DNA of 52,348 nt from a virus. Taxonomy: Duplodnaviria; Caudoviricetes. Both the position numbers and the translations under genes were made by a program. The stretch spans positions 1 to 52,348 of IMG/VR virus record IMGVR_UViG_3300049007_000012; one strand, 5' to 3'. Shown here in pieces: positions 1,705 through 46,291 of this stretch; the first letter of the stretch is position 1; the number at the start of each line of letters is the position of its first letter. Below the pieces are notes generated by a model that saw nothing but the letters and a program-made list of their open reading frames with translations, was not told the DNA's origin and searched no databases.

Positions 1705-1732
1705 ACGGCCCGGCGGGCCTACCGTGGCCGGC

Positions 1733-3052
1733 ATGGCGGGAGCGGAGCAACTGCCCTCGGGGCGCTGGCGACTGATCGTGCACAGGGGCCGGGACCCCCT
1801 CACCGGCAAGAAGATGTACGACCGCCAGGTGGTCGACGCCACCGGGAAGCGGGACGCCCAGCGGCAGGCCGACGAGTGGGAGGTGGACCTCCGCCGCGGC
1901 GAGGTCACCCACAAGGCCGGCACGTTCGCCCAGCTCACTGAGCAGTGGATCGAGACCCGGGGCCGCCGCTGGTCCCCCACCACCCAGCGCGAGAACCCCC
2001 GCATCGTCGACCGCTACCTCACCAAGTCGCTCGGCGAGCTCGACGTCTCCGACATCGGCACCCACACCATCGACCGGTTGTACGGCGCGCTGCTCGAGCG
2101 GGGCGGGAAGTGCCGCAACCGGCCGTGCCCCCGCCAGCCGTGCAAGGACCACGGACCCCGGTGCGAGCGCAAGAAGTGCACCCGGCCGCCGTGCAAGGCG
2201 CACGAGGGGAAGTGCGCCGGCCTGGTGCCATGCGACCGCGCGCCGTGCCCCCACGGCGGGCCGCTCACCCCGGCGACCGTGCAACGCATCCACACCGTGG
2301 TCCGCTCGGCGCTCGAGCAGGCGGTCAAGTGGGGGTGGATCAGGCGCAACCCGGCGGAGCACGCCGAGCGCGGCGAGGTCATCGAGCAAGAGGTCGACCC
2401 GCCGGCGGCTCCCGACGTGGTGCTGCTGCTCGCCGAGGCCGAGGCGATCGACAAGCGGCTCGCCGTCTACCTGCTGGTGGCGATCGAGGCGGGCGCCCGC
2501 CGGGGCGCGGTGCACGCGCTGCGCTGGTCGCACCTCGACCTCGCCACCGGCACCGCCCGGTTCCCGAACGTGGTCGTGATCGGACCCAAGGGCACCGGGG
2601 TGGTCGAGCGGCCGGCCACGAAGTCGAAGCGCACCGCCCGCAACCCCATCGCTATCTCGCCGTGGCTGGTCGCCGCGCTGGTGGCCCACCATGACGACAT
2701 GTTCGAGCGGGCCCGGGCGGCCGACGGCGTGCTGCCCTCGGACGCCCTGGTGTTCTCCGACGACCCGCTCGGCGCCCGCCCGTGGCGCCCGGACTCGACG
2801 AGCCGGAAGTTCCGGACGCTCCGGTGGGCCGCTGGCCTGGACGAGACCCGCCTGCACGACCTGCGCCACTTCATGGCCACCGTGCTCCTCGGGAACCAGA
2901 TCGACCCGAAGGTCGTCGCCGGTCGGGGCGGCTGGTCGAAGGTGGCCACGATGCTCGACCGGTACGCGCACGTCATCCCAGCGAACGACCGGGCCGCCGC
3001 CGACGTGATGGGCCGAGCACTCCGGCCCGCCGAGGATCAGCCCTCGGGGTAG
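1733..3052 (+). CDS. int: Tyrosine integrase with Cys/His-rich insert
   Basis: GARRG (R), HDLRH, GW, YAH catalytic residues; N-terminal arm-binding SGRWRL...DPLTGK; start at ATG 1733, 7 nt after TACCGT (-10-like). Confidence 0.95.
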   Translation: MAGAEQLPSGRWRLIVHRGRDPLTGKKMYDRQVVDATGKRDAQRQADEWEVDLRRGEVTHKAGTFAQLTEQWIETRGRRWSPTTQRENPRIVDRYLTKSLGELDVSDIGTHTIDRLYGALLERGGKCRNRPCPRQPCKDHGPRCERKKCTRPPCKAHEGKCAGLVPCDRAPCPHGGPLTPATVQRIHTVVRSALEQAVKWGWIRRNPAEHAERGEVIEQEVDPPAAPDVVLLLAEAEAIDKRLAVYLLVAIEAGARRGAVHALRWSHLDLATGTARFPNVVVIGPKGTGVVERPATKSKRTARNPIAISPWLVAALVAHHDDMFERARAADGVLPSDALVFSDDPLGARPWRPDSTSRKFRTLRWAAGLDETRLHDLRHFMATVLLGNQIDPKVVAGRGGWSKVATMLDRYAHVIPANDRAAADVMGRALRPAEDQPSG

Positions 3053-6153: not shown

Positions 6154-6677
6154 TGGCCGCCACCCTCACCCCGCTCCCGGTCCGCCGGCCCGGCTACTGG
6201 CTCCACGCCGTCGCCCTCGCCCGGACCGCCGAGGAGATCTTCACCGGCCCCGACGGCACCGTCGCCCTCGACCGGCTCCACAAGGTCACCGACCACGGGT
6301 GGGAGCGCATCGCCGCCCGGGCCGCGGTGCACCGCCCGGACGCCGTGACCACCCGGCTGGCCATCTCGCTCGTCGAGCACCGGGCCGCTGTCCCGTGGTG
6401 CGAGGGCGGGATCACCGGCCACGTCCCCGAGTCGCAGGTCGACGGCCACGGCGTCACCAACTGCCCCGAGTGCGGGCGCTACGTGCTCGCCACCGCCTGC
6501 TCCGAGGACGACGGCCGCACCTGGTCACCCGACATGCACCGGGCACCCCGGCAGGACCGCTGGCGCGACGCCGTCTACCAGCTGCCCCGCCAGACCCTCG
6601 ACGGCGACCTCGCCGCGCTGGACCGCATGGCCCGCGACGAGGGCATCGCCTCCCTCGCCGGGGAGCTGGACGGATGA
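6153..6677 (+). CDS. Hypothetical phage protein with CxxC
   Basis: TGATG coupling, CPECG motif. Confidence 0.7.
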   Translation: MAATLTPLPVRRPGYWLHAVALARTAEEIFTGPDGTVALDRLHKVTDHGWERIAARAAVHRPDAVTTRLAISLVEHRAAVPWCEGGITGHVPESQVDGHGVTNCPECGRYVLATACSEDDGRTWSPDMHRAPRQDRWRDAVYQLPRQTLDGDLAALDRMARDEGIASLAGELDG

Positions 6678-7270
6678 CCGGCCTCGACTCCACGGCGCTC
6701 GACGTCCAGCTCGACGAGCTGGTCGACCGCCTCCAGAACGACCCCGAGTCGGTCGCCCCCGACGCCCTCCTGATCCGCGATCTGGACTGGGCCGGCCGAG
6801 CGCTCCGCCGCATCGCCCGCCTCAACCAGCGCATGGCCGAGATCGAGGCCCTGCACGAGGACCGGCTCAACGAGCTGGCGGCGTGGTTCGAGGCCGAGAA
6901 GGCGCGCGACGGGCACGCCCGCACGTACCTGGTCGCCCGGCTGCGCCAGTTCCACGAGGCCCGCCTTGCCGACGACCCCAAGGCCAAGACCATCCGGCTG
7001 CCCGAGGGCGACCTCAAGGCCCGCGCCGGGCAGCCCCGCTGGCAGATCAACGACGAGGCGTTCATCGCCTGGGCCACCGACGTCATGGACGACCTACTCC
7101 ACCGCGAGCCCCGGGTCGACCGGAAGGCACTCAAGGCGGCGTTCGCCGACCAGGTGGCCGACGACGGCCGGGTCGTCACCGCCGCTGGCGAGATCGTCCC
7201 CGGCGTCGTCGTGCTGCCCCCCGAGACCACCTACACGCCCGCCCCCAACCCGATCGGCGGTACCCGGTGA
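6674..7270 (+). CDS. Mu Gam-like host-nuclease inhibitor / DNA end-binding protein
   Basis: Coiled N-terminus then KTIRLPEGDLKAR...VDRKALK...GEIVPGV pattern. Confidence 0.75.
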   Translation: MTGLDSTALDVQLDELVDRLQNDPESVAPDALLIRDLDWAGRALRRIARLNQRMAEIEALHEDRLNELAAWFEAEKARDGHARTYLVARLRQFHEARLADDPKAKTIRLPEGDLKARAGQPRWQINDEAFIAWATDVMDDLLHREPRVDRKALKAAFADQVADDGRVVTAAGEIVPGVVVLPPETTYTPAPNPIGGTR

Positions 7271-9748: not shown

Positions 9749-10353
9749 TGTTCCTCGCGACCGCCTCCGGCCCGACCGTCCGCCACGCCATCGCCGGCGG
9801 CCAGCTCGGCCAGATGGTCACCCCGGACGCCGGCAACCGGGTGGTCAACGGTGCCCGCTGGGCGCTCGACAACGGGTGCTTCTCCGACCGGTGGACGCCT
9901 GAGCGGTGGCTCGCCACGCTCGACCGCCACCAGAACGCGCCCGACTGCCTGTACGCCGTCGTGCCGGACGTGGTCGCCGACGCCCGAGCGACGAACGAGC
10001 GGTGGGCACGCTGGCATGGCGCCGCCCGCAACCGCGGCTACCGGTGCGCCTACGTCTTGCAGAACGGCTGCCGGTCCATCCCCGCGTCGGCCGGTGCCGT
10101 GTTCGTCGGCGGTGATGACCGGTTCAAGCTCGGTCCCGAGGTCCGAGCGCTCGTTGCCCTGGCCAAGCGCCGCCGCCTGTGGGTCCACATGGGCCGGGTC
10201 AACAGCCTCCGCCGCCTCCGGTACGCCGCCTGGCTCGGCTGCGACTCCGTCGACGGCACGTTCCTCGCCTTCGGACCTGACCGCAACCTGCCCCAGCTGC
10301 TCCGCTGGCTCCGGCTGGCCGCCGAGCCGACCCTGTTCGGAGGTGCGGCGTGA
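9748..10353 (+). CDS. TGT/DpdA-like transglycosylase-fold protein
   Basis: WALDNGCF, VPDVV, VFVGG, VHMGRVNS, DSVDGT motifs resembling TGT TIM-barrel strands. Confidence 0.65.
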   Translation: MFLATASGPTVRHAIAGGQLGQMVTPDAGNRVVNGARWALDNGCFSDRWTPERWLATLDRHQNAPDCLYAVVPDVVADARATNERWARWHGAARNRGYRCAYVLQNGCRSIPASAGAVFVGGDDRFKLGPEVRALVALAKRRRLWVHMGRVNSLRRLRYAAWLGCDSVDGTFLAFGPDRNLPQLLRWLRLAAEPTLFGGAA

Positions 10354-11867
10354 CGGCCACGGCGACAGACCTGTTCTGCGGGGGCGGCGGCACCAGCCTC
10401 GGCGCCGAGGCCGCCGGGCTGCAGCTCGTCATGGCTGCCAACCACTGGCAGACAGCGATCGACGTCCACCAGGCCCACTTCCCCGAGGCCGGCCACGACT
10501 GCGCCGACATCAGCCAGGCCGACCCGCGCCGCTACCCGGTCACCGACGTCCTGCTCGCCTCCCCCGAGTGCACGAACCACAGCCAGGCCCGCGGCGTGTC
10601 ACGCAAGCGGCAGGACCCGACCCTGTGGGACGCACCGGACCCGGCCGCCGAGCGCAGCAGGGCGACCATGTGGGACGTCGTCCGGTTCGCCGAGCAGATC
10701 CGGTACGCCGCCATCGTCGTCGAGAACGTCGTCGAGGCCACCCGCTGGGCGCTCTGGCCGGCGTGGCTCCAGGCGATGACCGCGCTCGGATACGAGCACC
10801 GGGTCCTCTCGCACAACTCCATGCACCACGGCGTCCCCCAGTCCCGGGACCGCATCTACGTGGTGTTCTGGCGCAAGGGCCTGCGGATCGACCTCGACCT
10901 CGAGCTGCAGGCGTGGTGCCCGCGCTGCGACGCCGCCCGGACCGTGCGCCAGGCGTGGAAGCCCGACCGGTGGGTCGGCCGCTACCGCCAGCAGTGGACC
11001 TGGGCGTGCGGTAGCTGCGGGGTCCGGTGCGAGCCCGGGACCAGCCCGGCCGCCGAGATCATCGACTGGGGCCTGCCGTGCCCGCGGATCGGTGACCGGC
11101 GAACGAAGAAGGGCAAGCCCAAGCCGCTCGCCGACGCCACCCGCGCCCGCATCCTCGCCGGCCTGCAGCGGTACGGCTGGGCTCCGGTCGTCACCGCCGG
11201 CGCCGGCCACGTCTACGAGACCACCCCGGGGAACCGGGCCCGGCCGCTGACCGACCCGCTGTCCGTGCAGGGCGGGACATCGCAGCACGCCCTCGCCACC
11301 CCGCCCGAGGGGATGATCGTGCCGCTGCGCCGCAACGGCCAGGCCCAGGGCGCCGATGAGGTGCTGTCCACCGTGACCGCCGGCGGCAACCACCACGCCC
11401 TCGTCATCACGAACGACCACGCCAACCGGGCCCGCTCGGTCGGCGAGCCGCTGCCGACCGCCACGACCGGCAACCGGCACGGCCTCCTCATGCGGAACAA
11501 CGGCGGCGGCGCCGAGATGGTCACCCCGCTCGACGAGCCCGCCCGCACGGTCACCACCAAGGGCCACCAAAGCCTGCTCGTGCCGTACAACGGCACCGGC
11601 CAGGCCCGCCCCGCCGACCGGCCGCTCGGCGCCCAGCCCGCCACCGACCGGTGGTCGCTCGTCGACATCGAGGCCCTGGTCGACGACTGCGGGTTCCGGA
11701 TGCTCGAGCCCCACGAGATCGCCGCCGCCATGGCGTTCCCCGCTGGCTATATCCCCTCGGCGCTGACCAAGCGCGACCGGGTCAGGCTGGCCGGCAACGC
11801 CGTCACGCCGCCCGTCATGCAGTGGATCACCGGCCGGATCCTCCAAGCGCTCGAGGCGGCAGCGTGA
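10350..11867 (+). CDS. C5-cytosine DNA methyltransferase
   Basis: DLFCGGGG, SPECT, ENV, QSRDR, GNAV. Confidence 0.93.
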   Translation: MTATATDLFCGGGGTSLGAEAAGLQLVMAANHWQTAIDVHQAHFPEAGHDCADISQADPRRYPVTDVLLASPECTNHSQARGVSRKRQDPTLWDAPDPAAERSRATMWDVVRFAEQIRYAAIVVENVVEATRWALWPAWLQAMTALGYEHRVLSHNSMHHGVPQSRDRIYVVFWRKGLRIDLDLELQAWCPRCDAARTVRQAWKPDRWVGRYRQQWTWACGSCGVRCEPGTSPAAEIIDWGLPCPRIGDRRTKKGKPKPLADATRARILAGLQRYGWAPVVTAGAGHVYETTPGNRARPLTDPLSVQGGTSQHALATPPEGMIVPLRRNGQAQGADEVLSTVTAGGNHHALVITNDHANRARSVGEPLPTATTGNRHGLLMRNNGGGAEMVTPLDEPARTVTTKGHQSLLVPYNGTGQARPADRPLGAQPATDRWSLVDIEALVDDCGFRMLEPHEIAAAMAFPAGYIPSALTKRDRVRLAGNAVTPPVMQWITGRILQALEAAA

Positions 11868-12919
11868 CGGCCCGGCTCCTCGTGGGCGACGTGTGGGACC
11901 GCCTGGGCGAGCTGCCCGACGGGTCGGTGCACAGCGTCATCACCTCGCCGCCGTACTGGCGGAAGCGCCGCTACCTCCCGCCGGACCACCCGCTCGCCGA
12001 CCGTGAGATCGGACAGGAGCCGTCGCCCGGCGACTTCCTCGCCACGATGCTGCGCCTCACCGATGAGCTGTGGCGGGTCGTCAGGGACGACGGGACCATC
12101 TGGATCAACCTCGGTGACACAGCCGCGGTCTCCGGTGGCGCCGGCGGCGACTACGACCCCGGCGGCCGCCGGGAGGGCCAGAACCGCTACGAGGGTTCGG
12201 GGCGAGCAAGCCGGCGCCGCGACAAGACCCCGGTCGCTGCCGTGGCGCGAGCAGCCGGGCTGGGTGTCCCGCTCGCCAAGTCGGTGTGCTGGATCCCTGA
12301 GCTGTTCGGCGCGTCGCTCGCCTACGGGCGCAACCTTCTGACCGGTGAGCCCTGCCGGCAGTGGATCACCCGCCCCAAGGTCACGTGGTGCAAGCCGACG
12401 ATCACCCCCGGCAGGTGCGACGACCGGTTCCGGGTCGCGACCGAGCTGTTCGTGTGGGCGTCCAAGCAGCCGGTCTACTACTGGGACCGGGCTTCGATCC
12501 TTGAGCCGCTGGCGGCCTCGCCTGGCAATCGGTACACGCGGCGCATCACGTCGGCCGACCGGGCCATGCGGGACCAGGGCGAGCAGACGGCGAACACGTT
12601 CACCGCTGAGTACGACCCGACGCAGGCTGATGGCGCGCCGCCGATGGACTGGTGGGTGGTCAACACCTCCGGCTATGCCGGCGCCCACTTCGCGACGTTC
12701 CCGCCGGAGTTGATCGTCCGGCCGGTGCTGGCCTCGTGCCCGCCCGGCGGGACGATCCTCGATCCGTTCGGCGGATCCGGCACGACCGCCGTGGTCGCCA
12801 CCGGTCACGGCCGGAACTGCGTCCTGATCGACTTCGATGAGCGCAACGCCGTGCTCGCCGCCGAGCGGGTCGGCATGTTCCTCGAGGTCGACCACCCGAT
12901 CACGGAGGCGGCGTCGTGA
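11864..12919 (+). CDS. N4-C/N6-A DNA methyltransferase (beta class)
   Basis: TSPPY then HFATFP and DPFGGSGTT. Confidence 0.92.
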   Translation: MTARLLVGDVWDRLGELPDGSVHSVITSPPYWRKRRYLPPDHPLADREIGQEPSPGDFLATMLRLTDELWRVVRDDGTIWINLGDTAAVSGGAGGDYDPGGRREGQNRYEGSGRASRRRDKTPVAAVARAAGLGVPLAKSVCWIPELFGASLAYGRNLLTGEPCRQWITRPKVTWCKPTITPGRCDDRFRVATELFVWASKQPVYYWDRASILEPLAASPGNRYTRRITSADRAMRDQGEQTANTFTAEYDPTQADGAPPMDWWVVNTSGYAGAHFATFPPELIVRPVLASCPPGGTILDPFGGSGTTAVVATGHGRNCVLIDFDERNAVLAAERVGMFLEVDHPITEAAS

Positions 12920-18381: not shown

Positions 18382-18947
18382 CCACCCCCGACCCCAACGA
18401 CGTCCTCGACCGGTACGACCGCTACATGCAGGACCCCGACGCCCTCGGCCCCACCGGCCAGAGCGTGCTCATCCGGGACCTGGGTCGTGCCCTCCGCTGC
18501 GCCATCGACACCGACCCGCCGACGTGGTTCGACCAGCAGGAGCCGTGCCCGCGGTGCGGCCACTTCTGCGTGGACCACGCCGCCTGCGCCCCGACGCGCT
18601 ACAGCCCGATCGTGGACTGCGGGTGCACCCACCCGGCGCACTTCGAGGGCGACCTCACGGCCGACGTCGAGCCGCCGGGGACCGGCGTGAGCGGCATCTA
18701 CCCGCGCCTCGAGGTGTTCGAGCGCATCCGCACCGACCACCCCGTCCGCATCCGCCCCACCGACTGGGCCTGCTCAACCTGCCACTTCGAGGTGCTGGTC
18801 TCGCTCATAGCCCCGGACGGCCGCCTCCCGTGCGGCCACGACCTCGGATGCCCACCCCAGGCGTTCCGGGTGCGGGTCGACCAGTGGACCGCCCGCTACC
18901 TCATGGCCAAGGCCACCGTCGCCACGCTCACCGCAGGCCGCTGGTGA
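18378..18947 (+). CDS. Cys/His-rich hypothetical protein
   Basis: SD GGAGGAG, several Cys/His clusters. Confidence 0.65.
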   Translation: MTTPDPNDVLDRYDRYMQDPDALGPTGQSVLIRDLGRALRCAIDTDPPTWFDQQEPCPRCGHFCVDHAACAPTRYSPIVDCGCTHPAHFEGDLTADVEPPGTGVSGIYPRLEVFERIRTDHPVRIRPTDWACSTCHFEVLVSLIAPDGRLPCGHDLGCPPQAFRVRVDQWTARYLMAKATVATLTAGRW

Positions 18948-19105
18948 CCGACCACGCCGCCACGCCGCCCGACCCGCCGCGCAACGAGTGGGCCGAGGCC
19001 CAGGCGCGGCTCGACCAGCTGTGGGCGGACCTCGCCGCCGAGGCCAGGGCCGAGGCCGAGGTCGAGCTGCGGGCGGCGATCACCGGCGAGCCGCCGCCCG
19101 GCTGA
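18944..19105 (+). CDS. Small hypothetical protein
   Basis: GTGA coupling, high GC3. Confidence 0.5.
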   Translation: MTDHAATPPDPPRNEWAEAQARLDQLWADLAAEARAEAEVELRAAITGEPPPG

Positions 19106-19107
19106 CG

Positions 19108-19127
19108 GCCTACCCGCGGCCGATCAT
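19108..19127 (+). promoter_or_regulatory. Late promoter motif copy
   Basis: GCCTACCCG-CGGCC-GATCAT-7 nt-ATG(19135). Confidence 0.7.
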
Positions 19128-19134
19128 GGCCGCC

Positions 19135-19497
19135 ATGAGCGCCGCCGAGCCCGAGCTGCCGCCGCCCGGGGACCGGGTCTGCCGCAAGGTGTTCGAGCAC
19201 GGCTGGGCGCTGTTCGACCGCGAGACCGGTGCTCGGGTCGGCCCGTGGTCGTTCCGCCGGAAGGTGGTCCTCGCCCGGCGTGGCCGTTGCGCGGTCTACG
19301 TGCCGTCGCCGTCCGGCGACTACGGCGAGTCCGGGGTATGCCCCGGCGAGGCGGTGGTGGCCTGCCCGGTCCGGGTCGACCCGGCCACCGGCGAGGACCG
19401 CATCGACGACCTGTGCCAGCACCACTACGACCGCTGGCTCGCGCACCGCCGCCGTCCCCGGCGTCCGATGCAGCTCACCCTCGCCCTGGCATCGTGA
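19135..19497 (+). CDS. Hypothetical protein preceding terL
   Basis: High GC3, LCQHH, GTGA overlap with terL. Confidence 0.65.
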   Translation: MSAAEPELPPPGDRVCRKVFEHGWALFDRETGARVGPWSFRRKVVLARRGRCAVYVPSPSGDYGESGVCPGEAVVACPVRVDPATGEDRIDDLCQHHYDRWLAHRRRPRRPMQLTLALAS

Positions 19498-20897
19498 CCG
19501 CGACGGTCACGCCGCTCGTCGGCAAGCAGCGCCGGTCCGTCGAGCTCGCCACCGCCCGCCTCAACATCTGGGAGGGCAGCGTCCGCTCGTCCAAGACCGT
19601 GTGCTCGCTGCTGCGCTGGCTGCTCTACGTCCGCCAGGGCCCGCCCGGGAACCTGGTCATGATCGGCAAGACCGAGCGCACGCTCAAGCGGAACATCATC
19701 GACCCGCTCGTCGAGATGATCGGGCAGAAGCGGTGCCGGGCGAAGTGGGGCGACGGCGAGCTGATGCTGCTCGGCCGGCGGATCTACCTGGCGGGGGCGA
19801 ACGACGCCAAGGCCGAGGACAAGATCCGGGGCCTCACGTTGGCCGGCGCCTACGTCGACGAGGTCTCGCTGCTGCCGCACGGGTTCTGGTCCATGCTCCT
19901 CACCCGCCTCTCGGTCGAGGGCGCTCAGCTGTTCGGGACCACCAACCCCGACAACCCGCAGCACTGGCTCATGCGGGACGTGCTCAAGAAGGCCCGCACG
20001 TGGCTACGCCACGACGGCCGCCTCGTCCGCTCGGACGCGCCGGGCCGCCTCGACCTCGCCCGGTTCTCGTTCCGGCTGGCCGACAACCCCACGCTCAGCG
20101 CTGCGTACCTCGCCGCGCTCGCCGCCGAGTTCCAAGGCCTCTACCGGCTCCGGTTCATCGAAGGGCTGTGGGTGCTCGCCGAGGGCGCCATCTTCGACAC
20201 CCTCGACGTCGAACCCGGCGGCGCGCACGTCGTCGCCGACGTGCCCCGCTCAGCCAACGGCGCGCCGCTGGCCCGGGAGTGGGTGCTGGCGATCGACTAC
20301 GGCACGGCGAACCCGTTCGTCGCCTTGCTGATCGGCCTGTTCGATGACGTCGACGAGAAGGGCCAGCCGTTCGAGCGCATGTACGTGGCCCGGGAATGGC
20401 GCTGGGACAGCCGGGCCGAGCACGGCCAGAAGACCGACGCCCAGTACAGCAAGGCGCTGGGCACCTGGCTCGACGGGCTCGCCCCGGAGCTGGGCCGGGT
20501 CGAGCTCGACCGCATCATCGTCGACCCCTCGGCCGCGTCGTTCATCGCTCAGCTGTGGGCCGACGGCTGGCACGGCGTGCGCGGCGCCGACAACAGCGTC
20601 ACCGACGGCATCCGGTCCACGGCCACCCTGCTGGCCGCCGACCGGCTGCGCATCCACGAGTCGTGCGCCACCGAACACCGCGCCGCCCGAGCGTCCGAGA
20701 ACGACCTGCTCGGCGAGCTGGCCGGCTACGTCTGGGACCCCACGGCGGCGGCCAAGGGCGAGGAGCGCCCGGTCAAGGACGCGGACCACGGCCCCGACGC
20801 GCTGCGCTACGGCGTGATGGGCACCAGGTTGTGGTGGCGGCACTGGCTGACGATCGACCCGACGGCGGCCGGCGACGGGATGGCCGAGGCGGCCTGA
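19494..20897 (+). CDS. terL: Terminase large subunit (PBSX-like)
   Basis: EGSVRSSKT, YVDE, TTNPD, IDYG, VDPSAASF, DHGPDALRY. Confidence 0.95.
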   Translation: MTATVTPLVGKQRRSVELATARLNIWEGSVRSSKTVCSLLRWLLYVRQGPPGNLVMIGKTERTLKRNIIDPLVEMIGQKRCRAKWGDGELMLLGRRIYLAGANDAKAEDKIRGLTLAGAYVDEVSLLPHGFWSMLLTRLSVEGAQLFGTTNPDNPQHWLMRDVLKKARTWLRHDGRLVRSDAPGRLDLARFSFRLADNPTLSAAYLAALAAEFQGLYRLRFIEGLWVLAEGAIFDTLDVEPGGAHVVADVPRSANGAPLAREWVLAIDYGTANPFVALLIGLFDDVDEKGQPFERMYVAREWRWDSRAEHGQKTDAQYSKALGTWLDGLAPELGRVELDRIIVDPSAASFIAQLWADGWHGVRGADNSVTDGIRSTATLLAADRLRIHESCATEHRAARASENDLLGELAGYVWDPTAAAKGEERPVKDADHGPDALRYGVMGTRLWWRHWLTIDPTAAGDGMAEAA

Positions 20898-20916
20898 CCT
20901 ACCCGCCGCCGATGGT
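20897..20916 (+). promoter_or_regulatory. Late promoter motif copy (upstream of phage tRNA)
   Basis: ACCTACCCG-CCGCC-GATGGT. Confidence 0.65.
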
Positions 20917-20974
20917 GGTGGACGTGGGGACGGCCCGTCCTCCGCCGGCTCCCCGGAGGCGGCCCAACCCACGT

Positions 20975-21048
20975 GTCGGGGTGGAGCAGTTGGTCAGCTC
21001 GCCGGTTTCATAGGCCGGAGGTCGCAGGTTCAAATCCTGCCCCCGCCA
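20975..21048 (+). tRNA. Phage tRNA with CAT anticodon, initiator(fMet)-like body but atypical
   Basis: D arm GAGC/GCTC, anticodon arm CCGGT-TTCATAG-GCCGG, T arm GCAGG-TTCAAAT-CCTGC; 2:71 mismatch; followed by CCT not CCA. Confidence 0.85.
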
Positions 21049-21059
21049 CCTACCCGCAT

Positions 21060-21089
21060 CGCCGCCCCTGGCTCCGGCTGGGGGCGGCG
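21060..21089 (+). terminator. Hairpin downstream of phage tRNA
   Basis: CGCCGCCCC...GGGGCGGCG stem. Confidence 0.5.
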
Positions 21090-21098
21090 CCGCGCCTG

Positions 21099-21118
21099 GC
21101 CTACCCGGGGCGGACCGT
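21099..21118 (+). promoter_or_regulatory. Late promoter motif copy (portal)
   Basis: GCCTACCCG-GGGCG-GACCGT-6 nt-GTG(21125). Confidence 0.7.
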
Positions 21119-21124
21119 GGACCG

Positions 21125-22768
21125 GTGCCGCTCCCCGACAACCCGAACGAGCCGTGGCCCCCGCCGCACTGGGCGCCGATCGCCCGGGACCAGGCCGAGG
21201 CCGCCGTCTGGTACAGCGGCGACCAGGACGCACTCGCCCGCTTCTACGGCGCCCAGACCAACGGCCAGGACCGCCGCCCCTCCGACGGCCTGCGCTCCGT
21301 CGCCGGCAAGGTCTCGGCATGGTTCTGGGGCCGCCGCTACGGCGACGAGCACACCGACCGCCAGCGCATCCACGTCCCCGCCGCCAGCGACGTCGCCGCC
21401 ACGTCGGCCGACCTCCTGTTCGGTGAGCCCCCGTCGCTCGTCATCCCCGAGGCCCACGAGGCCAACGCACCCAGCGACGCCAAGGACGCCGAGGACCGCC
21501 TCAACACGCTGGTCGAGGAGGACGGCATCGCCTCCACGCTCCTCGAGGCCGCCGAGATCTGCGCCGCCATCGGCGACGTCTACCTCCGCCCCCTCTGGGA
21601 CCGCGACGTCGCCCCCGACCACCCGCTACTGACCGTCGTCCACGGCGACCGCGCCCTCCCCGAGTTCCGATGGGGCCACCTCGTCGCCGTCACGTTCTGG
21701 CGGGAGGTGATGCGCAAGGGCGCCGAGGTCTGGCGCCACCTCGAGCGCCACGAGCCCGGCCTCATCCTCCACGGCCTCTACGTCGGCCGCGACAACGTGC
21801 TCGGCGCCAAGGTCGACCTGGCCCGCCACGACGCCACCGCCGGCTTCGACGTCGACGAGCTCGGCGCGATCAACACCCGCGACCTGCTGGGCGTCGACGG
21901 GCTGATCGTCCGGCACGTCCCCAACGTCAAACCGAACCGCCGCCACCGCGGCTACCCGATCGGACGCCACGACACCACCGGGCAAGAGGGACTGATGGAC
22001 GCCCTCGACGAGACGTTCACGTCGTGGATGCGCGACATCAGGCTCGGCAAGGCCCGCCTGGTCGTCCCGAACGAGTTCCTGGTCAGGGCCGGGCGCGGGG
22101 CCGGGGCGCGGTTCGACACCGACCAGGAGGTGTTCTCACCGCTCGACATCGACCCGTCGTCGGCGGAGAAGGCCGGCATCACCCCGGTCCAGTTCCAGAT
22201 CAGGGTCGCCGAGCACGAGCGCACCGCCATGGCGCTGTTCGAGCGGATCGTGTCCGGCGCCGGCTACAGCCCCCAATCGTTCGGCCTAGAGGGCGACGGC
22301 GCCACCCAGACCGCTACCGAGGTCGACGCCCGACAGGACCGCTCGGCCCGCACGAACGGGCGCAAGCAGCGGTACTGGCGGCGCCCGTTCGAGGACGTCG
22401 CCGAGCTGCTGCTCGTCATCGACAACAAGGTGTTCGGCTCCGGCGTGGAGCCGTACCGGCCGCGCCTGGACTTCCCCGACGCCAGCGAGGCCGGCACCCG
22501 GGACATGGCCGAGACGCTGAACCTGCTCACCATGGCCGCGTCGGCGTCGATCGAGACGCGGGTGCGGATGTTCCACCCGGAGTGGGACGAGACCCAGGTG
22601 CAGGAAGAGGTCGAGCGGATCAAGGACGAGCAGCCGGGCGGCGGCGGGTTCTCACCGGACCCGACCGGCCTCCCCCCGGCCGGCGGCGAGCCCGAGCCCG
22701 ACGCCACCAGCGGCGAGCCTGATCCGGCGGACGACCAGCCGCAGGGCGACACCGGCCCGCCGTCGTGA
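21125..22768 (+). CDS. Portal protein
   Basis: Follows terL; DALDETFTSWMRDIRLG, GYSPQSFG, QTATEV, HPEW patterns. Confidence 0.9.
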   Translation: MPLPDNPNEPWPPPHWAPIARDQAEAAVWYSGDQDALARFYGAQTNGQDRRPSDGLRSVAGKVSAWFWGRRYGDEHTDRQRIHVPAASDVAATSADLLFGEPPSLVIPEAHEANAPSDAKDAEDRLNTLVEEDGIASTLLEAAEICAAIGDVYLRPLWDRDVAPDHPLLTVVHGDRALPEFRWGHLVAVTFWREVMRKGAEVWRHLERHEPGLILHGLYVGRDNVLGAKVDLARHDATAGFDVDELGAINTRDLLGVDGLIVRHVPNVKPNRRHRGYPIGRHDTTGQEGLMDALDETFTSWMRDIRLGKARLVVPNEFLVRAGRGAGARFDTDQEVFSPLDIDPSSAEKAGITPVQFQIRVAEHERTAMALFERIVSGAGYSPQSFGLEGDGATQTATEVDARQDRSARTNGRKQRYWRRPFEDVAELLLVIDNKVFGSGVEPYRPRLDFPDASEAGTRDMAETLNLLTMAASASIETRVRMFHPEWDETQVQEEVERIKDEQPGGGGFSPDPTGLPPAGGEPEPDATSGEPDPADDQPQGDTGPPS

Positions 22769-24673: not shown

Positions 24674-24692
24674 CCTACCCGGTCGGGACGAT
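24673..24692 (+). promoter_or_regulatory. Late promoter motif copy (scaffold/capsid)
   Basis: ACCTACCCG-GTCGG-GACGAT-7 nt-ATG(24700). Confidence 0.7.
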
Positions 24693-28800: not shown

Positions 28801-29159
28801 CCACCCACGCCGGCGGGTTCACGTTCCGAGTCGACAACAGGGGCATCCTCGGCCGCAAGGTCCGCGAGGCCGCCGCCCGCGGCCTGTCCGACGCCGCCGA
28901 GATGCTGCTCGACGAGGCCAACCAGATCGTCCCCCACCAGGAGGGGACCCTGGAGGGCTCGGGCACCGCGAGCGTCGACGCCACCAACCTGCGGGCCGCC
29001 GTCTCCTACGACACCCCGTACGCCCTCCGGCAGCACGAGGACACTCGCCTCTCCCACCCGGGTGGCCGGCAGGCCAAGTACCTCGAGCGCACGTTCCAGC
29101 AGCACGGTCCCAAGGCGGCCGAGCACATCGCCGCCGAGATGCGCAAGGCGCTCGACTGA
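28797..29159 (+). CDS. HK97 gp10-like tail completion protein
   Basis: VP..GTL..S, YDTPYALRQHE, AKYLE. Confidence 0.8.
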   Translation: MTTHAGGFTFRVDNRGILGRKVREAAARGLSDAAEMLLDEANQIVPHQEGTLEGSGTASVDATNLRAAVSYDTPYALRQHEDTRLSHPGGRQAKYLERTFQQHGPKAAEHIAAEMRKALD

Positions 29160-29605
29160 TGCTCGCCACAGCGATCGCCAAGCGCCTCGCCGTCGTGGTC
29201 GACGACCTCGTCTACAGCGAGGACGAGCCGGGCGGGAACCTGTTCGTCGCGCACATGCCCGCCGCCCCCGACGTCGCCGTGATGGTGATGCCGACCGGCG
29301 GCCCGGCCCAGCTCACCAAGGCGGCGACCGACACGCCCACGGTGCAGCTGATGGCCCGGGGCGCGCCGACCGACGCCCGCACCCCGTACGCCCTGCTCCG
29401 CCAGGCGTACGACGCCCTCACCTGCCTCGACCTGGTGACGCTCGACGAGGGCGGCCCTGACGAGGTCCACGTCATCACCTGCACCGCCATGCAGTCCGAC
29501 CCGGTGCCGATCGGCCGGGACGAGAACGACCGCCCCGAGTTCTCGCAGAACTACCAGTTCCGCACGCACGCGCCCACCGCGCACCGCCCACAGATCACCG
29601 CCTGA
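29159..29605 (+). CDS. Tail terminator (minor capsid_3-like)
   Basis: LF..MP..PD, VQLMARG, IGRDENDRPEFSQNY. Confidence 0.8.
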   Translation: MLATAIAKRLAVVVDDLVYSEDEPGGNLFVAHMPAAPDVAVMVMPTGGPAQLTKAATDTPTVQLMARGAPTDARTPYALLRQAYDALTCLDLVTLDEGGPDEVHVITCTAMQSDPVPIGRDENDRPEFSQNYQFRTHAPTAHRPQITA

Positions 29606-29618
29606 GGAGGCACCCATC

Positions 29619-30371
29619 ATGGCCGTCGACGAGATCACCGAGATCCCCGCCAGAGAGTTCACGTTCGAGCTCAACACCGGCAGCGTGTCCGTCCCCGTGT
29701 GGGTCGAGGTCGAGGGCATCGACACCCTCGGCCACAGCCCCACGACGAACCGGGCCGACACCCGCCACTTCACCGACGGCGGCCGGCACAAGCACTGGGT
29801 CGCCAGCCGCGGCGACAGCTTCACCATGGCGGGCAAGCGGCAGGAGAACCCCGCCACCGGCGCCCGCGCCCCCGGCCAGGAGGCGTGCGAGACCTGGGCC
29901 GGCCTCGTCGGCCCCGACTCGCTCAAGCAGTTCCGCATCACGTCGCCCGCCGAGGCCGGCGCCGAGGTGCTGACCTTCCTCGCCAGCGTCGAGGCGACGA
30001 AGTTCGGCGGCGGCAACGACGACCCGTCGGCCTGGTCGATCGCGATCGAGGTCACCGGCCCGATCACCGGCGGCTCGACCGACGACCTCCCCGACGCCCC
30101 CACCGCGGTCGCCGGGTCGAACGGCAACACGTTCACGCTCGTCACCTGGACCGGCCCCACCGAGGGCAGCCCGTACCTGCTGTACGAGGTGACCGCCTAC
30201 GACATGGACGACAGCGGCGCGCTGCACGCGACCGTCACGTCGTCGAGCGAGCCGATCCACGTCCCTGGCCTCGTCAACGGCACCGACTACACGGTGCGGG
30301 TCCGGGCGCTGAACGCCGTCGGCTGGGGCCCGATGTCGGCCGCCTCGTCGACCATCACGCCCTCGGCCTGA
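29619..30371 (+). CDS. Major tail tube protein with C-terminal FN3 domain
   Basis: SD GAGGAGG; PDAPT..W..P..Y..GLVNGTDYTVRVRALNAVGWG. Confidence 0.85.
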   Translation: MAVDEITEIPAREFTFELNTGSVSVPVWVEVEGIDTLGHSPTTNRADTRHFTDGGRHKHWVASRGDSFTMAGKRQENPATGARAPGQEACETWAGLVGPDSLKQFRITSPAEAGAEVLTFLASVEATKFGGGNDDPSAWSIAIEVTGPITGGSTDDLPDAPTAVAGSNGNTFTLVTWTGPTEGSPYLLYEVTAYDMDDSGALHATVTSSSEPIHVPGLVNGTDYTVRVRALNAVGWGPMSAASSTITPSA

Positions 30372-37218: not shown

Positions 37219-37237
37219 CCTACCCGGCCCGCACGAT
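37218..37237 (+). promoter_or_regulatory. Late promoter motif copy (lysis cassette)
   Basis: ACCTACCCG-GCCCG-CACGAT-7 nt-ATG(37245). Confidence 0.7.
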
Positions 37238-42773: not shown

Positions 42774-44003
42774 ATGGCACGTGACGGCCTCGTAGCACGC
42801 AGACGGCAGCTCGGTCTCAGCCAGGCCGACCTCGCCGCCAGGATCAACGTCGCGGTGTCGACCGTCGCCCGGGTCGAGCGGGGCGAGCAGACCCCGCAGG
42901 CGTACAACCGGCGCCGCTGGGCCGAGGCCCTTGAAGCCAGCCTCGGTGAGCTCGACCGGTTGCTCGCCGGCGATGAGGCCGTCGCTGGGCGGTGGGGGTG
43001 GACCACCGTCGAGGCTCCCGACCTCGGCGACGTCGAGGCCATCGAGCTGATCCGTCGGGTCGAGGCGTCCGACGCCGGTCGGGCCACTCTCGACGCGCTC
43101 GAGCGCGGCGTCGACCGACTGTGCCGCTCGTACACGAACACCCCGCCCGCCGATCTCCTCGAACCCCTGCGGGCGTACCGCTCGTATGTCGTCCAGCTGC
43201 TCGACGGGCATGTCACCCTCGCTCAACGCCGCGACCTGATGGTCCTGGCGGGGTGGCTCTCGCTCATGACGGCGATCTGCGCCATCGACGTGCACCGGTA
43301 CCGGACCGCCGCCTCCAACCTCGACGCCGCCCGCGCGCTCGGCCATGAGGCCGGCTATCCCACGCTCGCCGCCTGGGCCGCCGAGACCGAGGCGTGGCAG
43401 GCGGTCACCGACGGCCGTCACGACGTCGCCGCTCGGCTCTGCCGGGCCGGCCGGGACCTGGCGCCGGCGGACACCTCGGTGCACGTGCAGCTGAGCGTGC
43501 AGGAGGCCAGGGCGTCAGCCCGGCTCGGCCTCACCGCCGAGACACACCAGCTGCTCGACGACGCCGCCACGGCGCTCGACCGGATGCCCGCGCCCGAGCA
43601 TCCCGAGCACCACTTCGTGTTCGATCCCCGCAAGCTGATCGGCTACACCGCCACCACGCTGGCGTGGCTCGACGACGACAAGGCGCTCGCCGAGGACTAC
43701 GCCCGCCAGGCGGTCGCTCAGTACGACGTCGGCGCCGCCGATGGCCGGTGGCTGCGACGGCTGGCGGCTGCGCGGGTCGATCTGGCGCTCGTGCTCGCTC
43801 GTGGCGACCAGCCGGCCGAGGCTGGCCAGCTCGGTGGTCTGGCGATCGCCTCCGGGCGCATGGTCCCGTCGAACCTGTGGCGCCTCGACGAGCTCGACCG
43901 GGAGATGACGGGGCGCTACGGCCGCACGGCCGAGGTCGACGAGTTCCACGACGTCTACCTCGACGCTCGCCAGGCGATGGTCGCGCTGCCCCGCGGCAGC
44001 TGA
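42774..44003 (+). CDS. XRE-family regulator with long helical (TPR-like) C-terminal domain
   Basis: LGLSQADLAARINVAVSTVARVERG HTH; Ala-rich helical repeats. Confidence 0.85.
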   Translation: MARDGLVARRRQLGLSQADLAARINVAVSTVARVERGEQTPQAYNRRRWAEALEASLGELDRLLAGDEAVAGRWGWTTVEAPDLGDVEAIELIRRVEASDAGRATLDALERGVDRLCRSYTNTPPADLLEPLRAYRSYVVQLLDGHVTLAQRRDLMVLAGWLSLMTAICAIDVHRYRTAASNLDAARALGHEAGYPTLAAWAAETEAWQAVTDGRHDVAARLCRAGRDLAPADTSVHVQLSVQEARASARLGLTAETHQLLDDAATALDRMPAPEHPEHHFVFDPRKLIGYTATTLAWLDDDKALAEDYARQAVAQYDVGAADGRWLRRLAAARVDLALVLARGDQPAEAGQLGGLAIASGRMVPSNLWRLDELDREMTGRYGRTAEVDEFHDVYLDARQAMVALPRGS

Positions 44004-44137: not shown

Positions 44138-44181
44138 CTCTCAAGGTGGCGACACGGGTTCGAATCCCGTTGGGGGTGCCA
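44138..44181 (+). repeat. attR core (duplicated tRNA-Glu 3' half)
   Basis: 44-bp identity with 1581-1624. Confidence 0.95.
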
Positions 44182-46000
44182 CGAACAAGGGAACGGGTGG
44201 CCCTTGTGGTGCTACGGCCTGGTCGATGGTCGTGCGGATCGCCGGGATGCGGTCTGCTCGGACGGTCACGCGCACGATGACCGAGTGGCTGGCTGCCTGG
44301 TAGCGCAGTTCGAGGTTGAAGCTGTCGTAGAGGTCGCGCAGCAGTTGCTCGGGCAGGTCGTCGAGGTCCGTTGGCCTGAGCGTCGGTAGCTCGTCGAGGA
44401 GGGTGGGGTCGTCGGGAGGGCCTTCTTGGCGCGTCGTCAGGGCAGCGAGCTGTTCGGTCTTCGTCTTGTGGTCTCGGGCGAGGCGGACGTAGCGGTCTCC
44501 GAGGCGGCTTCGGAGGTCGCGGTCGATCTCCTCGTCGCCGGTCGACTCGTGCATTTCGATCTGGTCGAGCACGTTCTGGCGCCGCTTGTCGAGGTCTGCC
44601 AACTCGGCGTGCAAACGTGCGACCACGGCGTCCGGCACGGGCGGCGAGTCGTCATCCGCGGGGGCGCGGAGTGCGGCTTCTCGCCGTGGGCCGAGGACGT
44701 GCTCGGCGAAGAACTGGTTGGTGAGGCCGAACAGGTCGTCTTCGCGGATCCACATGGTCTTGGGGTGGGTCTCGTACCAGGCGCGGCGCTGGCTGTGGTG
44801 GCGCATGTCGGGCCGGCAGACGTAGTACGAGGTACTGCGACGGGCCTTCCCGTACATCCGCCGGTCGCAGAGCTCGCAGAACACGTACCCGCGGAGGGCG
44901 TAGCTGCGCTGGGCCTGCCGGTGGCTGTTGGGGCCGGATCCGTTGCGGGATCCCTGCCGGGCTCGACCCATCTCGCTGACCGTCTGGTAGTGCTCCTTGG
45001 TCACTAGCGGTTCGTGGGTGGGACGCGGCGACCAGACCCACTGGCTCGGCGGGTTGACCTTGCCGCCCCTCGAGCTGGTGGCACGCCGGTTCCACACCAT
45101 GTAGCCGGTGTGCTTGGGGTTCACCAGGACCTCCCGCACCGCCGAGCCGCTCCATCGACGCAGCGCCCGCTCGGGGTCCACCGGGGTCGGGGGTGGGTGA
45201 GCCTCGGGATCGGCGTTGAGGATGTCGGCGATCGTGCGGTAGCCGAGGCGTTGCACCGCTCGGAGGCTGAAGATCCGGGTCACCGTCGGTCCCTCGACGG
45301 GATGAGGGACGAGACGAGACTTGGTGCGGCCTTCGGCGCGCTTGGCGGCGACCGGATGTGGGATCTTCTCGGCGCGGTAGCCGTAGCAGGGCTTGCCGAT
45401 GTTCCAGCCTTGCTCCGTGTGCTCCGCCGTGCCGTCCCAGGACAGCTCCAGCATCTGGAGCACATACCACTCGGCGACTGCCTGCTTGACCCGCCGGGTG
45501 AGGATCGGGGTCGCTCGCTTGGGAGCCCGCCCTCCACGCGGCCGGGCGAGGTCGGGGAGGGGCTCGTCGGCGGCCAGGAGCATGACCCCTGCCTGTTCGA
45601 GCTCGTGTTCGACCTTGGTGCCGAAGTAGGTGCGCCGGGCGACGCGCTCGACGGATTCGCAGACGACGGCGACGAACCGGCGGTCGGGACGCTGGGCCTC
45701 GGCGAGCAGGTCCTGGATGCCGCCGTCCCGGGGGATGCGGATGTCGAATGCCTCGTGGGCGTGTCCCTTGCCGCGTTCTGCGAGGTCCATGCGCCCGGAC
45801 TCGACGTCGTAGAAGTGGCCGACGATGGCATAGGGGGCCGGCAGAGCGTCCCTGCAGCTCCGCAGCTGCCGTGGCAACGACAGCGTCGGGTCCTGCTGGT
45901 CTTCGTCCGACGTTCGCCCCCACCAGGCCACCGGGATCTGACCGGCGGCCTCGATCGCGGTCGTGACCTTCTCGTCGGCGTCCTGCCAGGGAAACGTCAC
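44141..46000 (-). CDS. Large serine recombinase
   Basis: GRTS catalytic motif, SG..R, ERVARR, PCYGY, CELC...YYVC zinc ribbon, coiled coil; GTG 46000 coupled to upstream ORF. Confidence 0.93.
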   Translation of the reverse strand: MTFPWQDADEKVTTAIEAAGQIPVAWWGRTSDEDQQDPTLSLPRQLRSCRDALPAPYAIVGHFYDVESGRMDLAERGKGHAHEAFDIRIPRDGGIQDLLAEAQRPDRRFVAVVCESVERVARRTYFGTKVEHELEQAGVMLLAADEPLPDLARPRGGRAPKRATPILTRRVKQAVAEWYVLQMLELSWDGTAEHTEQGWNIGKPCYGYRAEKIPHPVAAKRAEGRTKSRLVPHPVEGPTVTRIFSLRAVQRLGYRTIADILNADPEAHPPPTPVDPERALRRWSGSAVREVLVNPKHTGYMVWNRRATSSRGGKVNPPSQWVWSPRPTHEPLVTKEHYQTVSEMGRARQGSRNGSGPNSHRQAQRSYALRGYVFCELCDRRMYGKARRSTSYYVCRPDMRHHSQRRAWYETHPKTMWIREDDLFGLTNQFFAEHVLGPRREAALRAPADDDSPPVPDAVVARLHAELADLDKRRQNVLDQIEMHESTGDEEIDRDLRSRLGDRYVRLARDHKTKTEQLAALTTRQEGPPDDPTLLDELPTLRPTDLDDLPEQLLRDLYDSFNLELRYQAASHSVIVRVTVRADRIPAIRTTIDQAVAPQGPPVPLFVAPPTGFEPVSPP

Positions 46001-46203
46001 GTGCGCCCCATGCGCTCCTGCCGTTGTAGCCACTGGATGATCTCCTTGATCGTGGCGTTCTGGCGGGCCTCAAGTTCGTCGCCTTCCGCCCCGGCCGCCG
46101 GGGTGAACTCGATGCGAGCGACCCGCAGGCGCTCGCGGCGAACTCCCGCCCGGCCGCCCTCAGCTGCGTCGGCATCCGGGAGCGTCTGACGCTGGCCGGT
46201 CAC
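45997..46203 (-). CDS. Small protein coupled to the serine recombinase
   Basis: GTGA overlap with recombinase start. Confidence 0.6.
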   Translation of the reverse strand: MTGQRQTLPDADAAEGGRAGVRRERLRVARIEFTPAAGAEGDELEARQNATIKEIIQWLQRQERMGRT

Positions 46204-46254
46204 CGATCCGCCCTGACGTCGGGCGCCTGGCGAGCCTTGAGATTCCGCTCAATC

Positions 46255-46291
46255 TGACACGTAATTATATCAAATAATTGGAAACGTGTCA
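46255..46291. promoter_or_regulatory. AT-rich nested inverted repeat
   Basis: TGACACGT-AATTAT-ATCAA-ATAATT-GGAA-ACGTGTCA. Confidence 0.5.

Follow-up and report, generated by a model that had tools for sequence, protein, structure and literature searches.

A lone initiator-like tRNA with a remodelled anticodon arm and acceptor end in the late operon of an actinobacterial prophage

The IMG/VR record IMGVR_UViG_3300049007_000012, analysed here over its whole length of 52,348 bases (hereafter the window; about 73% G+C), contains a temperate prophage whose host is a high-GC soil actinobacterium. Its late operon, transcribed from the plus strand, encodes the large terminase subunit (terL), the portal protein, a MuF-like head protein, a scaffold, a major head protein, a tape measure and an endolysin, and the 227 nucleotides (nt) between terL and the portal gene hold a tRNA gene with the anticodon CAU. 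ARAGORN called this gene tRNA-Met(cat) at 20975-21050, with the anticodon at gene position 35. The Rfam model RF00005 matched the tRNA body with 59.6 bits (gathering score 29, E = 1.9e-10) over model positions 1-71, which is its full length, and its alignment flagged one non-standard pair, in the acceptor stem. Apart from two chance-level matches the tRNA was the sole result of an Rfam search of 20850-21180 at E<=1. Together with the phrog matches of both neighbours (Table 1) these calls bear out the original prediction, made from the letters of the DNA alone, that a tRNA(CAT) lies between terL and portal. The Rfam score is near that of the tRNA-Glu of the host (61.9 bits), which is intact at the attachment site of the prophage, and the gene probably encodes a functional tRNA that accepts methionine.

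The 5' half of the tRNA reads G1 U2 C3 G4 G5 G6 G7, U8 G9, a D stem of GAGC (with A11) and GCUC (with U24) enclosing AGUUGGUCA, and G26. The 3' half is composed of the anticodon arm (CCGGU, UUCAUAG, GCCGG), the variable loop AGGUC, the T arm (GCAGG, UUCAAAU, CCUGC), the acceptor strand CCCCGCC, A73 and CCU. With this encoded CCU end the gene extends over 20975-21051, and CCA is not encoded. The letters engaged in tertiary interactions are all intact, namely U8, A14, G18, G19, U33 and GUUCAAAU. The peculiarities that had first drawn attention to the gene were found in the sequence as described: G1:C72 is paired and U2xC71 is not, 11:24 is A:U, the anticodon arm has U31.G39, U32 and G38, the variable loop and the T loop are AGGTC and TTCAAAT, and a CCT in place of CCA opens one of several CCTACCCG boxes, to which we return below. 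ViennaRNA paired both U31.G39 and U32.G38.

Judged by its letters, the tRNA descends almost certainly from an initiator tRNA (tRNA-fMet). BLAST identity to the host-type initiator tRNAs of one Nonomuraea and one Streptomyces genome was 84-86%, and in global alignments 64 of 75 columns agreed with the Nonomuraea tRNA-fMet and 61 of 75 with the Streptomyces copy. Both reference genomes carry distant relatives of the portal gene, and the true host of the prophage may differ from either. The CAU anticodon, A11:U24, the AGGUC variable loop, A73, G29:C41 and G30:C40 are common to the prophage tRNA and actinobacterial tRNA-fMet (loci L034-L040 of our collection, in which all loci bear L numbers), and the T arm GCAGGUUCAAAUCCUGC and the 3' strand CCCCGC are identical in the prophage and Nonomuraea tRNAs; in the comparison with Streptomyces, too, both are at least nearly so. 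The acceptor stem differs in that the initiator mismatch C1xU72 has become a G1:C72 pair and the G2:C71 pair a U2xC71 mismatch (C1>G, G2>U, U72>C). In the anticodon arm U31.G39 stands for G31:C39, UUCAUAG for the loop CUCAUAA (C32>U, A38>G) and C:G for U:A at 28:42. Finally, the D loop of the prophage tRNA is GGUCA, and CCU is encoded rather than CCA. The differences from the host-type tRNA in the anticodon stem, U:A>C:G at 28:42 and G:C>U.G at 31:39, are both double and compensated, which argues for selection on the fold.

The GGUCA D loop deserves attention. It is common to the tRNAs of two uncultured contigs (L015 and L179), Streptomyces phage Wakanda, Micromonospora phage pMLP1 and Mycobacterium phage prophi86-1 and is absent from the host copies. 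From this we infer that the gene has come down within a phage lineage of initiator-derived tRNAs, not by recent copying of a host gene. The closest sequence found was the tRNA of L015, a 102,929-bp IMG/VR contig with 26 tRNA matches; it agreed in 66 of 75 columns and had an identical 17-nt anticodon arm. In L179, an array of 26 tRNAs, the block from G18 to C48 was identical to that of the prophage tRNA. Both relatives lie in large tRNA arrays of actinophage-like uncultured contigs and retain the C1xU72 mismatch and G2:C71. The prophage copy, unlike these two, is a lone tRNA inside the late operon of a temperate phage of about 42.6 kb. Among cultured and deposited phages, a megablast search with the tRNA gave 17 records, none of which has the variant arm; the single record with a query coverage of 80% or more has the canonical arm. 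The other 16 are Arthrobacter phages (e.g. Galaxy, NC_041876.1, 20720-20751) that match only 32 nt of the 3' half of the tRNA. This unannotated stretch in the middle of their genomes is 96.9% identical to tRNA positions 41-72 and is probably the attP core for integration into the initiator tRNA gene of the host.

The remodelled anticodon arm recurs elsewhere. The exact 17-nt arm was present in 3 IMG/VR stretches, one of which (L015) is a tRNA. A pattern composed of its 11-nt core plus AGGTC, GTTTCATAGGCNNNAGGTC, matched 17 IMG/VR stretches, 12 of them tRNA-shaped, and with GGTTC added it matched 41 metagenome stretches, while a pattern joining the arm to the T arm of the prophage tRNA matched no metagenome stretch. 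Pooled with the window these searches gave 55 occurrences and 32 distinct tRNA sequences, at viral and metagenome loci of 24-73% GC. The patterns fix the core letters, so identity of the core is given by construction; the findings are the recurrence, the compensated stems and the retained 1:72 mismatch. In an alignment of the 22 initiator-bodied members 96.3% of 461 cells paired, as against 81.8% in shuffled alignments (none of 500 as high) and 33-47% in slid controls. Both sides changed in 12 of 21 pairs. Of the 21 rows that have letters at 1:72, 15 were unpaired there (the L015 row is without its first base).

Most variant-arm tRNAs are located in tRNA arrays. Where an array has several CAU tRNAs, usually none but the variant has an initiator-type body (L197, L179, L167, L175, L188, L191 and L202). 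At three high-GC loci (L167, 569-641; L175, 545-619; L191, 2427-2500) the variant-arm tRNA is adjoined by another tRNA(CAU), odd in its non-standard 8-9 junction and its long anticodon stem of G and C (…UCCGCCC CUCAUAA GGGCGG…). A further initiator-like tRNA gene (GUCGGGGUGGAGCAG…GGCUC), at L421 around 130-145, gives way to A+T-rich sequence after position 33, so that its anticodon loop may contain an interruption.

The variant arm pattern did not match in any of 401 actinomycete genomes sampled, whereas the analogous canonical pattern matched in 85 of 101 (the genome samples include some flagged as unpublished). The cellular arm is almost invariant: nearly every match listed in the scan for the canonical pattern reads GGCTCATAACCCAGAGGTC. 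One chromosomal exception in kind was seen in Nonomuraea (L041, G002:C1:11256369-11259421). It is an array of 8 tRNAs (Asn, Met, His, Thr, Pro, Gln, Arg, Glu), most of them without encoded CCA, in which the tRNA(CAU) has the same GU-UUCAUAG-GC core (U31.G39) together with the variable loop GAGAUC.

Phage initiator-like tRNAs often alter the third pair of the anticodon stem. When G or U was allowed at position 31, C or U at 32, A or G at 38 and C or G at 39, the 80 matches listed comprised 68 canonical arms, 8 with U31.G39 and a canonical loop, 3 with U32 alone, 1 with U31, U32, A38 and G39 and none with the full variant; A38 was accompanied by C32 in 76. A separate set of 80 loci with a base other than C at 39 included initiator-bodied tRNAs with C31:G39 (11), U31.G39 (6) and A31:U39 (3), and a further class combines U32 and G38 with G31:C39. 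G38 accompanies a base other than C at position 32, mostly U: of the G38-bearing phage tRNAs in the 80 stretches listed of 90, 62 have U at position 32, 9 have A, 7 have G and 2 have C.

The remodelled acceptor end, too, was seen elsewhere. Among 138 pooled distinct CAU tRNAs with an initiator body (A11:U24), position 1:72 was a mismatch in 110, U:A or A:U in 21, G.U in 2 and G:C or C:G in 5, and 2:71 was mismatched in 4, namely the prophage tRNA, L057 and L139 (both U2xC71) and L311. The same acceptor end, GUCGGGG/CCCCGCC-A with G1:C72 and U2xC71, was found in the tRNA-Met(cat) of prophi86-1 (gene 119, MW584160.1, 63461-63536), which is alike also in its initiator-type body and a few bases of its 5' leader. 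It differs from the prophage tRNA in its canonical loop CUCAUAA, C31:G39, the variable loop AGAAC and, on a hand parse of the anticodon stem, a U30xU40 mismatch, and overall 58 of 75 columns agree. A scan with the 5' pattern UGUCGGGGURGAGMAG gave 87 IMG/VR stretches, with 69 distinct strings in the 80 loci listed and 25 tRNA-shaped sequences by hand count. Seven of these have the 3' end CCCCGCC (L412, representing 4 loci, L393, L445, L407, L416, L428 and L451) and 17 have CCCCGCA or a close variant, that is, G1xA72 plus U2xC71. The 5' pattern had one match in 301 actinomycete genomes, in a genome flagged as unpublished. As it occurs in other phage tRNAs, the acceptor end is not a private lesion. 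The original prediction had named lack of conservation as the mark of a decaying pseudo-tRNA; what emerged instead is an arm core present in 32 distinct tRNAs with compensated stems, and an acceptor end present in prophi86-1 and 7 distinct IMG/VR tRNA sequences. This recurrence suggests that the unusual letters of arm and acceptor have been selected rather than left to decay.

What might such a tRNA be good for? We tentatively favour, at somewhat less than an even chance, the view that it is a working tRNA derived from actinobacterial tRNA-fMet, which would supply a methionine tRNA missed by a factor specific for the anticodon arm. It would be transcribed together with the late packaging and head genes and excised by the tRNA-processing enzymes of the host, with the CCA-adding enzyme supplying the missing terminal A. 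The one sequencing run listed as containing the stretch is a DNA run, and RNA runs were not among the matches. Because the CAU anticodon and A73 are present, the methionyl-tRNA synthetase of the host should charge it with methionine. The arm would keep the architecture of an initiator, with G29:C41, G30:C40, a paired 31/39 and a possible wobble-type 32/38, while the letters at 31, 32, 38 and 39 are swapped (G>U, C>U, A>G, C>G), and a factor specific for the initiator of the host would miss it. The tRNA would probably still be usable at start codons.

A U.G pair is an isosteric replacement of C.A+. In the crystal structure of E. coli tRNA-fMet, Cm32 and A38 form a wobble-like (A+.C) pair stacked on G31-C39, and A37 forms a triple with G29-C41 (PMC2528185). 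G30-C40 alone is reported to be sufficient for initiator function in E. coli, and natural initiators of the type GC/GC/gu exist (PMC5389676). With U31.G39 and U32.G38 predicted to pair and G30-C40 kept, the arm thus appears to have changed its letters and kept its shape.

The known model for such a factor is provided by the VapC-type PIN nucleases, of which enteric members cut tRNA-fMet between A38 and C39 (PMC4105405; PMC5175351). The suggestion that the remodelling touches the 3' side of the anticodon loop relevant to VapC is supported, in that letters 38 and 39 flank the published enteric cut A38|C39 (PMC4105405). The tRNA is phage-encoded and altered on both sides of that cut, A38>G and C39>G, compared with the tRNA-fMet of Nonomuraea and Streptomyces (the true host may differ), and for each of the two changes a second one restores the pairing. 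In 9 of 11 cases, phage tRNAs are reported to have an altered anticodon loop at or close to the position where a nuclease cuts (PMC10264068). On these grounds a spare initiator-type tRNA that is insensitive to such a nuclease appears plausible.

Several observations weigh against this reading, in addition to the core identity built into the pattern searches. None of the 13 loci of portal-based relatives (4 genome and 9 IMG/VR loci, at most 53% identical) carries any tRNA. The same arm occurs on elongator-type bodies in L163, L164, L165, L021 and L196. In the low-GC contig L178 (11061-11208) a variant-arm initiator-like tRNA directly adjoins one with the canonical arm, next to tRNA-Ile(GAU); the pair would lend itself to a test of whether the two arms do different jobs. 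Relaxed constraint could produce the variety of arm classes seen in phages. As far as the available text of PMC5175351 goes, the 12 Mycobacterium tuberculosis VapCs that have been mapped hit other tRNAs or 23S rRNA, and tRNA-fMet appears there as a target of enteric and Leptospira VapCs only. Within the prophage, PADLOC recognised none of 18 unassigned open reading frames as encoding a defence protein or tRNA nuclease; its sole matches were weak helix-turn-helix ones for 42774-44003.

A wider proposal is possible, although we lean against it: phages of many hosts might carry an undescribed class of letter-swapped initiator tRNAs in which 31/39 and 32/38 are exchanged for isosteric or pairing-preserving letters (U.G in both cases), which would be compatible with the ribosome and insensitive to VapC-type nucleases that shut down initiation by a cut at A38|C39, and to which the prophage tRNA adds the shift of the mismatch from 1:72 to 2:71. 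This shift may serve to evade another factor, one that recognises the acceptor end, or may alter the dependence on formylation. We found no description of phage initiator-type tRNAs with this arm in the literature searched; the supplements of PMC10264068 may list such tRNAs.

The main rival to a nuclease-insensitive initiator-type tRNA is an initiator that has turned into an elongator. The G1:C72 pair would then abolish formylation and permit binding of EF-Tu, the tRNA would deliver methionine to internal AUG codons, and the arm would have changed simply because it was freed from the constraints on initiators. Formylation by Fmt depends mainly on the 1:72 mismatch, as work of the RajBhandary laboratory established, and EF-Tu prefers a paired end. 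The G1:C72 pair would remove this main formylation determinant at a position where G:C or C:G was seen in 5 of the 138 pooled tRNAs, 110 others being mismatched and 21 having a weak U:A or A:U; this counts against an initiator role and for the rival. Compared with the features of initiators, A11:U24 and the CAU anticodon are there, whereas 1:72 forms a Watson-Crick pair and 29:41, 30:40 and 31:39 read G:C, G:C and U.G, so that the third G:C pair is lost. The features of elongators are a paired 1:72 and a pyrimidine at 11 opposite a purine at 24, in a D arm of the UAGCUCAG type; here 1:72 is paired and 11:24 is A:U. In prophi86-1 the same acceptor end is combined with the additional loss of G30:C40 (hand parse), a pair called essential for initiation in E. 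coli (PMC5389676).

A home-made profile of 61 canonical phage initiator-like tRNAs gave the prophage tRNA 50.8 bits and the host fMet 76.3, and a profile of 42 elongator-type CAU tRNAs gave 33.2 and 31.0 bits, respectively. The prophage tRNA is thus 25 bits below the host fMet on the initiator profile and no lower on the elongator profile; nevertheless its own initiator score exceeds its elongator score and, with A11:U24 kept, agrees with the initiator-like body described at the outset. G29:C41, G30:C40 and the wobble geometry of 32.38 are likewise kept, and the U2xC71 mismatch beside the terminal G:C pair should fray the end of the helix, which may still act as an open end. Moreover, methionine has a single codon, and ATG, at 14.8 per 1000 codons in 55 rough gene calls of the prophage, is not enriched. 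Codon supply therefore fails to explain the gene, and an extra elongator would have no obvious use. We regard conversion to an elongator as less likely than the preferred reading.

Neutral drift of an ordinary spare initiator-type tRNA is unlikely. The tRNA would boost or buffer the late supply of Met-tRNA, with its changes tolerated and compensated and of no special function. This would agree with the many 31:39 and 32/38 combinations in phage initiator-like tRNAs, with the reported dispensability of the third G:C pair in E. coli (PMC5389676) and with the compensation of all stem changes. Drift does not readily account for the same four-letter combination in 32 distinct tRNAs from loci of such different GC content, nor for the avoidance of C32 by G38, the near invariance of the cellular arm and an odd acceptor end common to an unrelated Mycobacterium prophage (prophi86-1).

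The surroundings of the gene raise the question whether it acts as a tRNA at all. Stable predicted hairpins abut both of its ends (Table 1). The leader 20898-20974 folded with -45 kcal/mol (z -2.90) and the trailer 21049-21124 with -48.5 kcal/mol (z -2.72), and in each case 1 of 200 shuffles was as good. The flanking hairpins that had been proposed were thus recovered on both sides, a narrower leader of the kind first described (20920-20974) folding less significantly (z -1.71, 11 of 200 shuffles).

The hairpins are interspersed with CCTACCCG boxes. The window has 6 copies, all on the plus strand, against an expected 1.64 (standard deviation 1.45), and 3 of 100 shuffles reached 6. The box often lies within TGACCTACCCG. 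All six copies are situated at late-gene junctions, three of them directly behind a TGA stop, and the starts that follow (of terS, a 33-codon frame, portal, scaffold and endolysin) lie 6-18 nt beyond the end of the box. The start codons that follow have no obvious Shine-Dalgarno sequence. A promoter of its own, which had been claimed for the tRNA, was not recovered: a scan of 18900-21400 gave neither a sigma-70-like promoter nor an intrinsic terminator, and the boxes, behind stops and shortly before starts, have the position of intercistronic elements. CCTACCCG is a real, strand-specific motif and may be an intercistronic control element. Start-associated sequences and stoperators are known from mycobacteriophages. 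By analogy the box might be one of the former or an operator of the stoperator kind; another possibility is the -10 part of promoters of leaderless messages. Its occurrence in Micromonospora phage pMLP1 was taken as chance, with 4 matches on one strand against 4 of the reversed pattern (2 forward, 2 reverse); the pMLP1 copies at 2707 and 2722 appear to be inside coding sequence. The closest portal relatives, L006 and L007, have TGACCGACCCG right behind the terL stop at the terL/portal junction and no tRNA. Three copies of the box lie within 210 nt, which suggests that a junction of this kind was duplicated when the tRNA cassette entered it.

The 33-codon frame begins in the leader, and its TAG stop is created by the A38>G change in the tRNA. 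Its third codon positions have a G+C fraction (GC3) of 0.79, as against 0.95-0.99 in the neighbouring genes, and it is probably not a gene. In Streptomyces phages of the PapayaSalad type, terminase and portal are separated by a small hypothetical gene.

These surroundings leave room for a sequence that does not act as a tRNA, either a decaying pseudo-tRNA or a tRNA-shaped punctuation mark at which RNase P and 3' nucleases would split the terminase and head messages. The hairpins at both ends, the exact position at the terL/portal junction, where L006 and L007 have only a gap of about 45 nt with a similar TGACCGACCCG, the missing CCA and the 2:71 mismatch would suit this explanation. It is nevertheless highly improbable in view of an Rfam score equal to that of the tRNA-Glu of the host, intact tertiary-interaction letters, compensated changes and the recurrence of both odd parts elsewhere under structural conservation; encoded CCA is, besides, absent from many phage tRNAs. 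That the tRNA reads AUA in the manner of tRNA-Ile2, through a lysidine made from C34, is hardly conceivable: variant-arm tRNAs adjoin tRNA-Ile(GAU) in several arrays (L163, three times, L178, L179 and L197), but in L197 two CAU tRNAs of the elongator type are present in addition to the variant, the body of the prophage tRNA is of the initiator type, and the 55 rough gene calls of the prophage, with ATA in 5 of 12,017 codons and no ATT, indicate no need for AUA decoding.

The prophage is bordered by direct repeats of 44 nt, the left one of which is the 3' half of the intact tRNA-Glu gene. A tRNA-dependent lysogeny, in which the phage replaces a tRNA lost by the host, was considered and rejected, since integration at tRNA-Glu leaves that gene intact and the carried tRNA has a CAU anticodon. 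Two adjacent DNA methylase genes lie in the early region of the prophage (10350-12919), one for a C5-cytosine (PF00145) and one for an N6/N4 enzyme (PF01555), and a Mu Gam-like protein is encoded there as well (6674-7270). To the right of the right repeat follow a large serine recombinase on the minus strand (44141-46033) and an AAA_10/HerA-like ATPase (49567-52149); this region (44141-52149) may be a second element integrated at the same tRNA-Glu site. The minus-strand open reading frame 29006-30160 was rejected as a moron gene because it is the shadow of two plus-strand genes with a GC3 of 0.97-0.99; it had no Pfam or PADLOC match.

Table 1. Position of the tRNA gene, its flanking elements and selected prophage features in the window.
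Feature	Position	Strand	Remarks
tRNA-bearing prophage	1581-44181	.	44-nt direct repeats at both borders (1581-1624 and 44138-44181)
Integrase	1724-3052		phrog_1 at 1.2e-47
terL (terminase large subunit), upstream neighbour	19494-20897	+	phrog_2 at 5.2e-37; GC3 0.97; stop TGA 20895-20897
CCTACCCG box	20898-20905	+	Directly behind terL stop
5' leader, two predicted hairpins	20903-20974	+	20903-20921 and 20922-20974; the second ends one base before tRNA position 1
33-codon open frame	20912-21013	+	ATG 6 nt after the 20898 box; stop TAG = tRNA U36-A37-G38
tRNA(CAU) body, positions 1-73	20975-21048	+	ARAGORN; RF00005; G1:C72, U2xC71, A11:U24, A73
Anticodon arm CCGGU-UUCAUAG-GCCGG	21002-21018	+	CAT 21009-21011; U31 21006, U32 21007, G38 21013, G39 21014
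CCTACCCG box	21049-21056	+	Begins with tRNA C74 C75 U76
3' trailer, two predicted hairpins	21060-21113	+	13-bp G+C hairpin 21060-21089, second hairpin 21090-21113; no T run after either
CCTACCCG box	21100-21107	+	17 nt before portal start
Portal protein gene, downstream neighbour	21125-22768	+	phrog_533 at 2.5e-94; start GTG 21125
Further CCTACCCG boxes	19109-19116, 24674-24681, 37219-37226	+	

The reading we prefer, of a working initiator-derived tRNA overlooked by a factor that recognises the anticodon arm of the host initiator, would have consequences beyond this prophage. A cell can halt all translation at little cost by cutting its initiator tRNA, and if this were a common move against phages, uncuttable initiators should be expected in phage genomes. 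The survey published on nuclease-evading phage tRNAs reports instead that phages tend not to encode tRNA-fMet, which they generally avoid where VapC-LT2 is the nuclease (PMC10264068). An arm that recurs with its geometry preserved, together with a recurrent acceptor variant, now offers a concrete and testable set of substrates. The same tRNAs bear on the question which features an initiator needs, as they break two textbook rules and yet look selected. For annotation, the plain labels "tRNA-Met" or "tRNA-fMet" for such genes call for comment.

Two known groups of tRNAs come closest to the one described here. The natural GC/GC/gu initiators of some mycoplasmas and alpha-proteobacteria (Shetty et al., NAR 2016, PMC5389676) likewise keep the first two G:C pairs of the anticodon stem and have a wobble pair as the third. 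Theirs is G31.U39, with the purine on the 5' side, whereas the prophage tRNA has U31.G39 and changed letters at 32 and 38 as well. The nuclease-evading phage tRNAs (van den Berg et al., eLife 2023, PMC10264068) resemble it in having altered letters that flank a known cut (38|39 for VapC). The prophage tRNA differs from those in being initiator-derived and in that its changes include a stem pair, and the host nuclease that it would evade is a putative one. Phage tRNAs with changes in the anticodon arm are thus already known; the tRNA between terL and portal combines two recurrent, phage-associated departures from the rules for initiators.

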